From Octopus vulgaris (taxonomy: Eukaryota), in assembly GCA_951406725.2 (NCBI GenBank), contig OX597819.1:64170001-64234000 (forward strand): DNA of 64,000 bases, written 5' to 3'. The notes below the pieces were generated by a model that saw only the letters and a program-made list of their open reading frames with translations, had not been told where the DNA came from and made no database searches. Numbering within the stretch: the first letter of the stretch is position 1; the number at the start of each line of letters is the position of its first letter. This document shows, in pieces, positions 20,556-60,338 of this stretch. The translations under genes and the position numbers were made by a program.

Positions 20556-20932
20556 TTCTTCTTCTTCTTCTTCTTCTTCTTCTTCTTCTACTTGTTCTTT
20601 TTCTACTTCTCATTATTGTCGTCATCATTATCACCATCATGGTTATCATCATCATCATCATCATCGTCGTCGTCGTTGTTATTATTATTATTATTATTAA
20701 TAATAATAAAGATAATAATAATAATAATCAGAAACACGCACACACACAGGCACAAACATACGCAAATACACACACACACAGGCACAAACAAGCGCAAATA
20801 CACACACGCACACACACATACACATACACATATATGTATATACATACCTCCAAAATGTATTTATACTCACATTCATGTATGTATGAATAAACATATACAT
20901 ATACCTATACATATATATATATATATATATAT

Positions 20933-21818
20933 AGAGTAAACACTATGTGGTCGACTCTAGCACTAAAAATAGATCCTCTAGGTTTCAGCCACAGAGAATT
21001 GTTTCCGATGAAAGTTAGCACGACTACTAGCGCAAATGAACAGGGCAAATAAAAGTAACAAAAATGCAGATTAGTTCAGGACAAATGTTTCGCTATTAAT
21101 AAATTATGTAATTTTACTCACATAACATATCTGTAGCTCTTCAGCCGAACCCGTCCAGAATACAATTTACTCAACCGCACACTAGATTTTACCATAACGA
21201 TAAACACACGTGCGGTTCAGTCGATTGCATTCGCTGTTATAATTCAAGTGTCCCTGCCACAGCCCGCCAAAATTCACGGAAACAGATGCTACATCCAAAA
21301 TTAAATGCAGTATAATTACAATCAACTAAGGGTGAGAAAATTGGATACTAATTTAATAGTACATCCATTTAACACCAAGCGGCTTATTGCATAAAAACCT
21401 GGATTACGATAAATTTTATACATAAATATAAGAGAGTAACCACTATGTGGTCGACTCTAGCACTAAAAATAGATCCGCTAGGTTTCAGCCACAGAGAATT
21501 GTTTCCGATGAAAGTTATGTGAGTAAAATTACATAATTTATTAATAGCGAAACATTTGTCCTGAACTAATCTGCATTTTTGTTATTTTCATTTGCCCTGT
21601 TCGTTTGCGCTAGTAGTCGTGCTAACTTTCATCGGAAACAATTCTCTGTGGCTGAAACCTAGCGGATCTATTTTTAGTGCTAGAGTCGACCACATAGTGG
21701 TTACTCTCTTATATTTATGTATAAAATTTATCGTAATCCAGGTTTTTATGCAGTAAGCTAGTTGATGTTAAATGGATGTACTATTAAATTAGTATCCAAT
21801 TTTCTCACCCTTATTAGT

Positions 21819-25332: not shown

Positions 25333-26429
25333 CTATATTTGTGTGTGCGTGTGTGTGAGTGCATAAATCTGTATCTCTGTTGCGGTCTATGTCTCAAAAC
25401 ATATTCACATTCACCACATCTAGATTCGCAAAACTCAAGCTTACTATTTAATTCTTGTCTGCTCTCCTCCCAATACTATTTTCTGCTATAAGAATCATCG
25501 TAATTCAACTTCATTTTTATTGCCATAATCATTACATATATTCATACGTGAATTCTCAAAATATGTTTTTTTGTTATTTATTTTATTACCATTGACAACT
25601 GCCAAGCAGACTGATCGTTTAAAATCTAAGCAAACCGGAAAACATATTCTAGACATAAATAATAATCATGGCCGATGCACAAATTATATAATTATTGCAA
25701 ACATGATGCCAACGTAATAGCTAGAAAATAATTTCTGTCGTAGAATTTTATCGTAATTATTGTAAGTTTTTAGAGTTTCCAATAACGACAATGAAATTTA
25801 GAATAGAAATTTAACTACCTCAAATATGTTCGTTTATAAAAATGTGTGATAAAATTGTTTGAATATTCTCACTTATCATATTCCATATTTGCTTATTATA
25901 TTAAATACAACACGATGACATTTACTTTATGATTTACAAAACACAAAAATATACAGGGCGGAATAAAAACTTATGCATACATTTTACATCATCGTTAATG
26001 GCTTCGCTCTTGCTTCTATGATTATCATTTATTTGTGATTTGCAAGCTCCCACACACACACATACGTCTATATGTAAGTACATACACATGTATAATCTTT
26101 ACAACATATTCACTTGTTTAACATATATATTCATTTATATTCATTATGTTTCACACTCAGTAACAGCGCATCAATGATATTTAGTAAATCAGATATCTTT
26201 AGATATTTAAATGTTAGAAACCTCATAGGAATCTACAAAAACTTCAACCATATAAATTCCACGTATATTTATATATTTATAGGTTATGAAGTACAACATT
26301 ATTTAATGTTTCTGTTATTTTGTATTCGGTTATAAAATTTAAAATAATTATTTCTGAATTTTGTCAGGCATTGTCTTCTTCTGCCAGGTTATTATGCATG
26401 CCTACAGCTGGAATGCGACGTAAAAATAA

Positions 26430-27070
26430 ATATTTGCCTTACTGACATCACATTTGAATATATAACAAAACTTGAAGGCTGGCTATCAAGTCTTTTCTAT
26501 CATTTATTACATGTCAGCATTATATGAACTATAATCGTAAAAAAAACATTACTTAAATATTTATCTTTCAAAATATATAGTAGAGTAAATATAAAGATTT
26601 TAAAACGTGGGAGGTTTATTTGATTATGTAACTAATTTCAGCTCATAGTTTAATATAAACATTTTGGGGGGATTTTTGTAACTAAATTACAGGTGTTTTA
26701 TACATATCAGTTCAGTATCAAAACCCACGAAAAGTAAAATATCAACAACATATATTTGCCTTACTGACATCACATTTGAATATATAACAAAACTTGAAGG
26801 CTGGCTATCAAGTCTTTTCTATCATTTATTACATGTCAGCATTATATGAACTATAATCGTTAAAAAAATCATTACTTAAATATTTATCTTTCAAAATATA
26901 TAGTAGAGTAAATATAAAGATGTTAAAACGTGGGAGGCTTATTTGATTATGTAACTAATTTCAGCTCATAGTTTAATATAAAAATTTTGGGGGGATTTTT
27001 GTAACTAAATTACGGGTATTTTATACATATCCGTTCAGTATCAAAACCCAAGAAAAGTAAAATATCAACA
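26430..27070. repeat. Near-identical tandem duplication, period 322 bp
   Basis: 26430-26748 is repeated at 26752-27070 with scattered substitutions. Confidence 0.9.
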
Positions 27071-27194
27071 ATGATGTATATATGATTATAGAAATGTATG
27101 TATCTGTGCAGCATATTCACACTAACATACACATAAACACAAACATACACACACACACGTGTGCACGCGTGTGCGTGTACCTGTACATATGATT

Positions 27195-34294: not shown

Positions 34295-34500
34295 ACATAT
34301 ATATATATATATATATTTAATTTGTTTTGCGAGACGGACTGTTTCAACGAGGTTGCGTATTGTCCTTGCCTTTCAAACGCGGATTAGTTGAAACAGGGAC
34401 AACTGAAGAAGGGGAATATTCTTTAAGTTTCTTCGAAAAAATGTTCGTTTCTGTGTTTTTGTTTTTATGTTTTCGTTTCTCATTGTCTTCAACGTTTTTG

Positions 34501-35488
<988 letters not shown>

Positions 35489-35856
35489 TTATTTTATATG
35501 TATAATATATATATGTTTTGTTTTTTTGAAAATTAGTACAGGTGATTTCTAAACATCCTTCAACATAAAGTAAAAATATTTCCATAATTTCTTATAGGAG
35601 GCTGAATGGCACTATTTATGATTTGTGTTCTCATGTATACAGGCGAAGGGTTTATAGGTTGGTTGGAGGTGAGATAGAGCAGGCAAATATAATTATAGAG
35701 ATAGATGAATAAATTAGATAGATTGTTGAGGGAATAGCATTATAAATAAGGTAAGGGTGTAAAGTACATTTATAAGCTGAGAAAATGTGCATATACACAA
35801 GGCACACGCACGTATATACATGCATACATACATTCATCCTTACATACATACATACA

Positions 35857-41310: not shown

Positions 41311-41513
41311 AAATAGAAAGATGAATAATCTTGTAGTAGATTAATCAAAAGTTTAACCGATACCTTAGTAGCAAAAATCACAGCAGTAAACAGCACGGTT
41401 GGAGGTACAACCATATGGTGTTGCAACCGTGCGTTGGTGCGGATAATTGAAATTAAAACATTATTGGTGAATTGAAGAAATGGAGCTGAACGCAGATTGA
41501 AGAGAAATCGTTT

Positions 41514-41607
41514 TATTTCATTCTACACGTGTTTCGAAAGGCACAAATTACCAAAATCCGATTGAATAATGGGACCATATTGTGTCTTTCTCTTCAGGAA
41601 GAAAATA
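41514..41607 (-). ncRNA. Type I hammerhead ribozyme (inverted copy)
   Basis: Exact reverse complement of 41965-42058. Confidence 0.85.
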
Positions 41608-41964
41608 GGAAATCCGTTGGAAAAACAAAAACAGAACAGAGGCGGAGCAAAAACAAATCGAACTATGCTCCTAAGAGCCCATGGCGAAACTGTTTATCAG
41701 TGTATGTTGAGAACCGGTGGCTGAAGAATTTAACGAGTCAGGCACCGGTCAATCATGTGGGTGAGGGTGTGTAGGTGTTCTTTGTGACCGAGAATAAAGT
41801 TCTGACTATTTAAGGAATATTGGATGTTTTATAAGGGGCGAGAAAAATCTACTTAGAGACGTGTGTGTGTGTATACTGTTCTATATATGTGTGTGTTGGC
41901 GTAGGGGTAGAAAACATTTTTGTGTACGTGTGTGCGTTTGTTTTTGTTTTTCCAACGGATTTCC

Positions 41965-42058
41965 TATTTTCTTCCTGAAGAGAAAGACACAATATGGTCC
42001 CATTATTCAATCGGATTTTGGTAATTTGTGCCTTTCGAAACACGTGTAGAATGAAATA
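41965..42058 (+). ncRNA. Type I hammerhead ribozyme
   Basis: TATTTTCTTC-CTGAAGA-GAAAGACACAA..TTGTGCCTTTC-GAAA-CACGTG-TA^GAATGAAATA. Stem I 9/10 pairs, stem II 10/11 pairs, palindromic ACACGTGT stem III, GUA triplet, predicted cut after 42048. Confidence 0.87.
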
Positions 42059-42113
42059 AAACGATTTCTGTTCAATCTGCGTTCAGCTCCATTTCTTCAA
42101 TTCACCAATAATG

Positions 42114-42163
<50 letters not shown>

Positions 42164-44217: not shown

Positions 44218-45535
44218 GCGTCCCGATGGTCAGGCGATCCATTTGCTGTCAACACCCGTTAAAAGGAGGGCTGGGCATGCCGTGGTTGATGATGCGCAGA
44301 CACGCGCTGAGACTGCGACATCTCTGGCTCTATGTAGACGACGGTGAACAGGTGTGGTCGCCGTTTGTGAGGCACGCTTTCCCGCAGCTCGTCTCCATGA
44401 CCGAACTGCAGTCGTGGATCAAAAAGAGGCCGAAGTAGGGCGAATGGCACCGCGAGTGTCGCGTTGCTCTCAAGCAACTCTGCCGTCCTGGGTCGACCTT
44501 GAGTGACTTCAACACAACCAAAGCATTCTATAGGGGTTTAGTGGAGGGGAGGTACGACGACGAGCTCGGGGCGAACCTGGACGTCGACGAGGAGTACCTG
44601 ACCCGCCTGTTCAGGACGACTTTCGGGCCAGGGCCCATGGACAACTTCCAGAGATCCCTGGCCTGGCAGTGCTACCGAGAAGCGCTACCCGTTCGGGATA
44701 AGCTCTACAGACACGGCTCGAGAAACACGGGGCCGACCTGCCCGAGATGCGGTCAGAGCGACGAAACCGTTCTGCACGCACTCGTGCAGTGTCCAACAAT
44801 TTCCGACCTGTGGGCTTGTGTTGAACAACTGCTGTCACGTGTGGGACGAGTCGGTTTATCAGCTGAGTCTATCGTTAATATTGTCACGCCTCTCTCCTTC
44901 AAACGGGAAGGAAGAGCTATTTTCATCATCCTTGTGGCTATGGCGAAAGAATGTATCTGGTGGACGCGTCTGAAAGGATTGGAGACAAACACTTTCCTCT
45001 CTGGTCAATCTCTCATCAACTTCTTCAAGTACCACTTGAAAAGGAAAGTGAGAGTAGAGAGGCAAGTTTTGTCTAGCGAATGTTTTAAAAAAGATGGGTG
45101 AATGTAGCAAGAATGGCACGTATGAATGACGAAGCCACCTTGAGCATGATCCTATGAACCCAGAAATTGAAAACAGAGAGTTGCTTATTTGCAAAAAAAA
45201 AAAAAAAAAGAAATATAACATGTGACTCCATTGACCGAGGTTACCGTGGTCTTTTCCGTAGGCTTTTCTTTCCGCGGGTAAACCTCACCTGTCCTCCCCT
45301 TTACACTTCATATTGACATTTCTGTGATAAAGATCCCTATTGATCAAATTTTTTTTCCTCTCCCCCTTTTTTTTAACCCCCTTTTTTTGTCCTCTTTCTC
45401 TCCTTTTACGATCCCTTTTGATCGAAACTCCCCCTTCCTTTTTTCTTTTTTTTTTTTTTAAACCTTCAAAAGAAAAGCTCTACCTTGTAATTTGTTCTAT
45501 CTGTGTGCAGCCCTGTGTGGCTAATAAAGAAACAT
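44218..45535 (+). mobile_element. 5'-truncated Tx1/L1-clade LINE inserted in (TATC)n
   Basis: ORF2 C-terminus QHPLKGGLGMP..WQCYREALPVRDKL..CPRCGQSDETVLHALVQC..W (CCHC knuckle). One in-frame stop at 44436-44438 and a frameshift near 45090. Pyrimidine-rich 3' UTR with AATAAA. TATC repeats on both sides. Confidence 0.9.
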
Positions 45536-59047: not shown

Positions 59048-59084
<37 letters not shown>

Positions 59085-59165
59085 GGAGTAAACACAAAAA
59101 ATGTGAATCAAGGTGGGAAAAAGAGTACTCAAATACCAGTGGTAGAGTAATATGCTTTAAATAAA

Positions 59166-59196
<31 letters not shown>

Positions 59197-59200
<4 letters not shown>

Positions 59201-59602
59201 ATGGAACGTTGATAGGTAAAGTTCCTTCTTTTTAGTGTTTCCAAATCCAAATTAAGAAATCTTGAGCTGACGAAAGAAATGCTGATTTTATTTGGCTAAT
59301 CTTGAAACGTTGACGTACTCAAACGATCTATGTACTTGTGATATTTTTCTGTATTTACCCCCAAACCTTCGTGAGCTGTCTGGAGTAAACATTATCTGAG
59401 AGAAATTTTCTTTAAGTAGTAGAAATGCTAAGAAAAAAATTTTTTTGGCTGCTATTTCTACTAAGTTCAGTATGTGGCAAAGTAATTTATTTTACTAAGC
59501 CCTAATTATATAATGTAATATTTTGAATTCGCCTTAAATGGTCCTTTTACATACTGAACACTTGGTGAAATTGATTAATTAATTAATTTTACCCTCAGTT
59601 GT

Positions 59603-59605
<3 letters not shown>
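59197..59605 (+). mobile_element. Solo pLTR or retrozyme-like monomer (about 410 bp) between (TA)n runs
   Basis: Contains an HHR. Ends CTTGGTGAAATTGATTAATTAATTAATTTTACCCTCAGTTGTTG-(AT)n, the same tail type as 21760-21820. Confidence 0.8.
59262..59322 (+). ncRNA. Type I hammerhead ribozyme
   Basis: TTGAG-CTGACGA-AAGA..TCTT-GAAA-CGTTGACG-TA^CTCAA. Perfect 5 bp stem I, all core nucleotides intact, GUA triplet, predicted cut after 59317. Confidence 0.85.
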
Positions 59606-59644
<39 letters not shown>

Positions 59645-59649
<5 letters not shown>

Positions 59650-60338
59650 TTTAACAATTAAGGATAACCTCTTAATAAGGAATCTTAACAAGAAATTATC
59701 GGGTAGTTAGCGTGAAAACCTCATAAAAGAAAAGAATTCGAAAATAATTTTTTTCTTTTGAACAAATTAATTATATCTATATTGTATAGAGGGCATTATT
59801 ACACATAAATGCCTCACACTAAGAGGGACTAAGTCATTACTACCAAAATTATACTAATCATACCCAAATGCAGTTTTTCAAAGCAAGACATTTAAAAAAA
59901 TGAATTTAGTTCTGTATCACCGTGAATTCACATTCAACTTGCGTCTTATGATCCTCAGCAGAACTGATTCTGAACACATCATAAATAAACTACCAACCTT
60001 ACGGAGCGAAGACGACCAGACAACTGATCACTCCGGCCAAGCACATGGAATGTTTATAAATCATATATCCGGTAAATGGCGGGCTTTTTACGAACTGCAT
60101 GTCGGGTAATAAAAAGTATTTCGGAATAAGTTTAACAATTAAGGATAACCTCTTAATAAGGAATCTTAAAAAGAAATTATCGGGTAGTTAGCGTGAAAAC
60201 CTCATAAAAGAAAAGAATTCGAAAATATTTTTTTCTTTTGAACAAATTAATTATATCTATATTGTATAGAGGGCATTATTACACATAAATGCCTCACACT
60301 AAGAGGGACTAAGTCATTACTACCAAAATTATACTAAT
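59645..60338 (-). mobile_element. HHR-containing partial tandem element, period 481 bp
   Basis: Near-identical direct repeats at 59645-59858 / 60126-60338. Abuts (TA)n. Confidence 0.85.
59908..59965 (-). ncRNA. Type I hammerhead motif with core substitution
   Basis: AGTTCTG-CTGAGGA-TCAT..ATGT-GAAT-TCACGGTGA-TA^CAGAACT. Perfect 7 bp stem I. GAAA reads GAAT and the first stem II pair is mismatched. Confidence 0.7.

Follow-up and report, generated by a model that had tools for sequence, protein, structure and literature searches.

A truncated copy of a non-coding hammerhead repeat family in Octopus vulgaris and the Penelope-type insertion footprint of the family

The octopus genome contains a non-coding tandem repeat, here called family A, which its sequence places as a new family of the known non-LTR retrozymes, with expression, self-cleavage and circular RNAs as predictions. 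One copy lies in the window, the 64,000-nucleotide stretch of contig OX597819.1 that we analysed. We consider it highly probable that this copy, 5'-truncated and one-armed, belongs to a non-LTR retrozyme family with a non-coding tandem unit of 565 bp, and that it likely entered a (TA)n tract through reverse transcription by a Penelope-like RT/GIY-YIG protein acting in trans. The unit length and copy number of the family, its two fixed 3' ends, its TA flanks and inverted second arms, and read-through of its ribozyme site can be seen directly in the genomic copies, and it is this family-level footprint, not the window copy, that carries the interest.

Results

A type I hammerhead in the window copy

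All conserved hammerhead nucleotides are present on the plus strand of the window copy, with the CUGACGA core at 59267-59273, GAAA at 59304-59307 and GUA at 59315-59317. Stem I is formed by UUGAG (59262-66) and CUCAA (59318-22), stem II by AAGA/UCUU lengthened by GCUGA/UUGGC, and stem III by ACGU-UG-ACGU, with A17 at 59317 (Table 1). A CUGANGA, GAAA and NUH core with stems I-III in this order is that of a type I hammerhead, the 10.1-11.1 pair being A-U, not G-C. A stem II closing pair other than G-C at this position lowers hammerhead activity; it is A10.1-U11.1 in the window copy and U-U in families B and E, described below. A preliminary description of the locus had reported an intact core and a cut after 59317. 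Every conserved nucleotide is indeed at its place, and the cut coincides with the position predicted from the layout of the core.

The motif is the sole hammerhead that our own descriptor detects on either strand of the 64-kb window. Across 200 block-wise dinucleotide shuffles, the descriptor averaged 0.02 hits per 64 kb with all stringencies admitted, and no shuffle reached the quality of the window hammerhead (at least 5 pairs in stem I and at least 4 in stem II). An Rfam search of the window copy returned no hammerhead match at the gathering score or at E<=10; weak matches to microRNA and sRNA models were set aside as TA-repeat or chance matches. We conclude that the type I hammerhead motif is real, its self-cleavage being a prediction from sequence. 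Further hammerhead-like motifs belonging to other repeat families were seen in the flanks of six fetched loci (L039, L049, L069, L079, L107 and L002), all with a self-complementary stem III (ACGAUCGU, ACAUGU, ACCGGU, ACGCGU and others).

Table 1. Features of the family A copy and its immediate flanks (window positions)
Feature	Positions	Strand	Observation
(TA)15 tract, 5' flank	59167-59196		
10-nt 5' junction	59197-59206	+	Does not align to the unit in either orientation
Family A copy, 5'-truncated (positions 169-566 of the 566-bp unit)	59207-59605	+	98-99% identity to dispersed copies; mapped on L002:1333-1898
Type I hammerhead: stem I, CUGACGA core, extended stem II, GAAA, palindromic stem III	59262-59322	+	Predicted cut after A59317; 245 exact genomic copies of 59264-59320
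Self-complementary stem III ACGUUGACGU	59307-59316	+	Predicted 10-bp intermolecular helix in a double hammerhead; cofold minimum-energy structure of two copies
Strong hairpin	59418-59462	+	Self-inverted match and fold; inversion and truncation junctions of other copies often lie in or near it
Site of the family's 'short' 3' end (unit 473-482)	59512-59521	+	3' end of the inverted arm in other copies; shares TATATA microhomology with the target
'Tail' between the two fixed 3' ends	59522-59605	+	Window copy has the long end: TTGA followed by the TA repeat
(TA)21 tract, 3' flank	59606-59647		A second hammerhead repeat on the other strand also ends here

A truncated member of a dispersed family

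The genome was searched with 59197-59605, and the best 40 of 2223 first-look candidates were scored. Among these 40, the other top matches cover approximately positions 11-409 of the query at 98-99% identity, and their upstream flanks have a further 168 bp in common. At the level of the family, ribozymes in tandem are spaced by 562-565 bp, with two motifs at each of five loci (L004, L012, L013, L016 and L030); the window copy has one. As reference we took a natural 566-bp unit (L002:1333-1898), in which the cut falls after position 278. The locus had been described as a 410-bp monomer; it is instead the last 399 bp of this 562-566-bp tandem unit, and its first ten nucleotides lie outside the unit.

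The 57-nt ribozyme core (59264-59320) occurs 245 times exactly in the genome, and a reversed control not once. The unit has a GC content of 0.34, is non-coding, exists as many dispersed copies and, as judged from its end structure, has no LTR. No ORF was found in the unit or adjoining the window copy, which sets it apart from an autonomous Penelope-like element with its RT + GIY-YIG ORF between pLTRs. The absence of an ORF and the (TA)n tracts on both sides had been claimed before, and both observations stand: the longest ATG ORF of the window copy encodes 34 aa, and tracts of 15 and 21 TA repeats border the locus. Family A is a young, protein-free repeat present hundreds of times in the genome. 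No second copy occurs within the 64-kb window.

At 59261 and 59598 the window copy carries bases seen in none of the other 34 full-length matches, and at 59209 it departs from 32 of them; overlapping loci enter these counts repeatedly. The substitution at 59261 abolishes the sixth pair of stem I. The single A>G change at 59598 is not evidence of RNA editing, because family A has no excess of A>G over T>C on the sense strand (19 versus 19 site-alleles in 113 segments, p 0.51). The same comparison, with overlapping loci deduplicated only in part in all three families, likewise gave no excess in family B (23 versus 24, 98 segments) or in family E (5 versus 4, 42 segments). The window copy is an atypical, one-armed truncated member of its family and, as a locus, an ordinary truncated insertion. 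Being sub-monomeric and with one ribozyme, it could not by itself give a cut-to-cut monomer or a circle. At 70% of the unit, it also falls short of a full-length 'solo' under the 80% length rule set out in a 2026 preprint (10.64898/2026.07.22.740005).

Three sister families were recognized. Family B is about 82% identical to family A, has a 563-bp unit, stem III ACGUACGU and U-U at the base of stem II, and forms arrays of up to 13 full units. One such 13-unit array (L196, G000:C3:97077300-97086900) contains several variants that recur in non-adjacent units. In family C the unit measures 601 bp, stem III is ACGUACGU and stem I differs completely; family D was encountered mainly as 3' pieces. 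As judged by eye, without a formal covariation count, the change of stem I from UUUGAG/CUCAAA in family A to CCUACG/CGUAGG in family C is compensatory, while the stem III palindromes measure 10 and 8 nt. The 3' region is common to families A, B, C and D, and its motif has 4497 exact matches in the genome.

Stem III is predicted to form between two molecules

The preliminary description had left it open whether stem III pairs within one molecule or in a dimer. The folding predictions argue against the first and for the second. An intramolecular stem III of 4 bp would require a 2-nt loop, and a 3-bp version has a predicted pair probability of 0.02-0.13. When two copies are cofolded, the minimum-energy structure is a double hammerhead with a 10-bp intermolecular stem III (-30.2 kcal/mol for a 71-nt stretch). 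It is likely, from these models, that the palindromic stem III would form only in the dimer and that the ribozyme would work in pairs. Published metazoan hammerheads with an unstable palindromic helix III act as dimers (PMC4209133), and axolotl data are in line with this (PMC7229834); the dimer form of the window hammerhead, here by prediction alone, agrees with both.

These predictions bear on how the motif should be assayed. Transcription of 59250-59335 had been put forward as a compact first test, a choice that the models do not favor: this construct folds no better than shuffled sequences (z -0.83), its pair probabilities as a single strand are 0.11-0.13 for stem I and 0.02 for stem III, and the substitution at 59261 shortens stem I. 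The tighter 71-nt stretch reaches 0.64-0.86 for stem I and 0.12-0.13 for stem III as a single strand. Since the longer construct is predicted to misfold as a monomer and carries the 59261 substitution, absent cleavage of it would not refute the ribozyme; a hammerhead with a palindromic stem III should rather be assayed as a tandem dimer or over a series of RNA concentrations. Modeled as circles, cut-to-cut units fold with z scores of -5.0 (family A), -4.8 (family B) and -6.9 (family C) against 25 shuffles each.

Two fixed 3' ends and inverted arms

For the analysis of insertion ends, loci were picked by the 3' 136 bp alone, which avoids selecting long copies; 869 candidates yielded 41 matches, of which 30 loci were fetched and 24 proved distinct. 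Arms at these 24 loci end at unit position 566 in 24 of 49 cases, at 470-490 in 20 and elsewhere in five, and 40 of the 44 arms with a fixed 3' end continue into (TA)n. The two fixed sites are about 90 nt apart. By hand count, 20 of the 24 loci consist of back-to-back inverted arms, 17 of them pairing one long with one short end and three having one atypical end; the remaining four loci, the window copy included, are one-armed. Beyond both 3' sites the unit goes on with TAT or TATATAAT, so that, on sequence grounds, a short pairing of the unit with the target is possible at each. With 5' truncation, an inverted arm, a tail at one end and a microsatellite target, the copies carry the footprint of Penelope-type insertion. 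Sister family B and the neighboring family E have similar pairs of ends.

It is hard to reconcile this end structure with satellite DNA that spread by DNA-level recombination in TA tracts and carries a hammerhead by chance. Tandem arrays do exist, and their units are more alike within than between arrays, as such an origin would have it; 3' ends that are fixed while 5' ends vary, together with asymmetric inverted arms, are nevertheless marks of retrotransposition, which largely refute it, and the chance rate of the motif was zero in 200 shuffles. We regard a satellite origin as very improbable.

Where do the 5' ends lie? Of the 49 arm 5' ends, 31 fall at unit 340-445, around the hairpin, a concentration that partly reflects a bias towards short copies, and a single one lies within 5 nt of the ribozyme cut. 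Self-cleaved linear RNA was rejected as the main template route, the 5' ends not being at the cut. The cut site itself is crossed by 23 of the 49 arms, with 25 crossings in total.

The scarcity of 5' ends at the cut also suits a ribozyme that is a mere passenger, cutting little or not at all in vivo while the family spread from uncleaved, multimeric read-through RNA. The non-canonical 10.1-11.1 pairs point the same way, as do two published results: the Poseidon element of the anole inserted in vitro without needing ribozyme cleavage (PMC11167929), and only one of nine predicted Xenopus retrozyme dimers cleaved in vitro (10.64898/2026.07.22.740005). A ligated circle would, however, be read through likewise; the core and the palindromic stem III have been kept across families whose helices differ, and the cut-to-cut monomer circle folds far better than shuffled sequences. 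We think a passenger ribozyme unlikely, yet deserving of serious consideration. It is compatible with our preferred explanation as far as mobilization is concerned, the sole difference being the RNA template.

Sister family B offers a further view of the template. Across five of its arrays, with 32 units in all, two units of one locus are 2.7 substitutions apart and units of different loci 11.4, and locus-specific variants occur in both arms. This pattern, which concerns family B and not family A, fits a single circular template, but also a homogeneous source array.

Penelope-like enzymes in the genome

A genome search for GIY-YIG domains, in which the best 150 of 6136 candidates were scored, found many of these 150 matches in 781-aa frames; intact frames of this length combine an RT with a C-terminal GIY-YIG domain. 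Copies of the RT + GIY-YIG elements run out into (TA)n at either of two sites, which are separated by about 38 nt, and L066 combines one arm of each kind. The terminal repeat of these elements includes a hammerhead variant, U3-A8, whose stem III is palindromic. An abundant two-frame Penelope-like element with frames of 479 aa and 781 aa (RT-GIY-YIG) was met at loci L061-L071 (e.g., L064:268-4960); it has intact copies, stem III ACAUGU in the U3-A8 variant and a 38-nt tail. A tail, an inverted arm and a TA bias have been described for Penelope-like elements (PMC8557442), and for Poseidon of the anole two internal start sites of reverse transcription, extension of both strands in vitro and a predicted protein dimer (PMC11167929).

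The unit matched none of the pLTRs of 45 GIY-YIG loci (30 of the 150 listed matches plus 15 fetched stretches, from 6136 candidates), and no autonomous element sharing DNA with the unit was found among these 45 loci or by tblastn around the family loci. At the three GIY-YIG loci that did match the unit, the matches were nested sister-family insertions or only 32 nt long. Having no DNA similarity to the unit, the 781-aa elements attest to suitable machinery in the genome but do not identify the partner.

One may ask whether the window copy is a truncated pLTR of an autonomous Penelope-like element with an unsampled coding body, rather than part of an independent, non-autonomous unit. Hammerheads with a short palindromic helix III do sit in pLTRs, mostly as single truncated motifs (PMC4209133), and the end structure is that of a Penelope-like element. 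Against a pLTR, family A arms longer than one unit run head to tail into another unit, sister family B includes arrays with 13 full units, and the matches to Penelope proteins found by tblastn at family loci (best 40 candidates per search) were separate nested insertions wherever they were inspected, which was at five of the six in one search. A pLTR origin appears improbable to us, though rare autonomous copies may lie outside these best 40.

Neighboring repeats

TA-targeting insertions cluster at the site of the window copy. Another hammerhead repeat, family E, apparently unrelated, occupies 59647-60338 on the minus strand with 1.4 copies of a 481-bp unit and terminates in the same (TA)21 tract, facing the family A copy. 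The family E hammerhead (59909-59964) carries U in place of A at 15.1 (59926), a change absent from 64 of the 65 motif matches in the fetched loci, and to judge by this sequence the copy is likely inactive. Family E is young and arranged in tandem; its copies have two ends, at 481 and at about 331-356, and 13 of its last 15 bases agree with those of family A. Upstream, an 84-bp piece of another repeat (59083-59166) lies between (TA)18 and (TA)15 and abuts TA tracts at other loci too (84-92% identity).

Elsewhere in the window, a 220-aa frame (44439-45101) resembles the zinc-binding C-terminal portion of LINE reverse transcriptases, and the segments 26422-27071, 34498-35489, 20916-21723 and 41454-42118 comprise a 323-bp tandem duplication, a duplication with a 526-bp period and two inverted-repeat pairs.

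Discussion

We propose the following model for the spread of family A. Tandem copies would be transcribed, and neighboring hammerheads would pair via their palindromic stem III and cut, yielding monomers of 563 nt, which ligation may close into circles. With both strands of a TA tract nicked by a Penelope-type enzyme, cDNA synthesis would be primed internally at two sites about 90 nt apart, probably aided by TATA microhomology, and the two cDNAs would then be joined back to back. The window copy would represent the long-end arm only, 399 nt in length, and cleavage of its RNA would likely depend on a second hammerhead in trans.

A more specific reading can be offered tentatively, as somewhat more likely to be wrong than right. 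A single 563-nt RNA circle may be the template of each insertion, copied by a dimeric Penelope-type enzyme that uses both nicked TA strands as primers, the start of each strand (unit 566 and about 475) being set by TATA microhomology; running round the circle would produce arrays. If this reading holds, the genome keeps a record of the step at which a retrozyme circle serves as template, and the tail region of 90 nt common to the four sister families would be an enzyme recognition element, transferable to other RNAs. More generally, the family lends genomic support to the proposed use of Penelope-like enzymes by animal retrozymes, and its two start sites and conserved tail region are testable with purified enzyme.

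Both a target-primed circle and a Penelope enzyme were proposed earlier for non-LTR retrozymes (PMC7229834), and the 2026 preprint derives retrozymes from pLTRs (10.64898/2026.07.22.740005). We found no description of family A in the literature on octopus or cephalopod hammerheads, retrozymes, Penelope or short stem III dimers, although supplements and the Repbase/Dfam libraries may hold the family; nor did we find a description of two-end asymmetry in retrozymes in the literature on retrozyme tails, inverted arms, and target-primed or microsatellite insertion. The main text of an octopus repeat-annotation paper (PMC13282606) contains 0 occurrences of ribozyme or hammerhead.

How does family A relate to known systems? 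With the metazoan non-LTR retrozymes, as described by Cervera and de la Pena in 2020 (PMC7229834) and by Li, Clavereau and Pollet in 2026 (10.64898/2026.07.22.740005), it shares a non-coding tandem unit with one type I hammerhead, a GC content of 34% and no LTR, dispersed solo, dimer and multimer copies, and autonomous Penelope-like elements in the same genome. The likeness extends to the predicted self-paired circle and to a ribozyme that, by prediction here, acts as a dimer, as in the axolotl. Its 565-bp unit exceeds the 170-400 nt of the 2020 retrozymes and falls within the 51-972 bp of the preprint. Unlike retrozymes as these two sources describe them, family A shows two fixed 3' ends and inverted arms, and no pLTR relative was found among the 45 loci.

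With EN+ Penelope-like elements and pLTR hammerheads (PMC8557442, PMC4209133, PMC11167929), family A has in common 5' truncation, partial tandems, an inverted 5' arm, a tail at one end, TA-rich targets, a hammerhead with a palindromic helix III and two internal starts of reverse transcription. It differs from EN+ Penelope-like elements as described (PMC8557442) in having no ORF and a tail of about 85-93 nt instead of 30-40 nt. Unlike Poseidon_Ac, which is reported to start without homology (PMC11167929), both start sites of family A show TA microhomology with the target.
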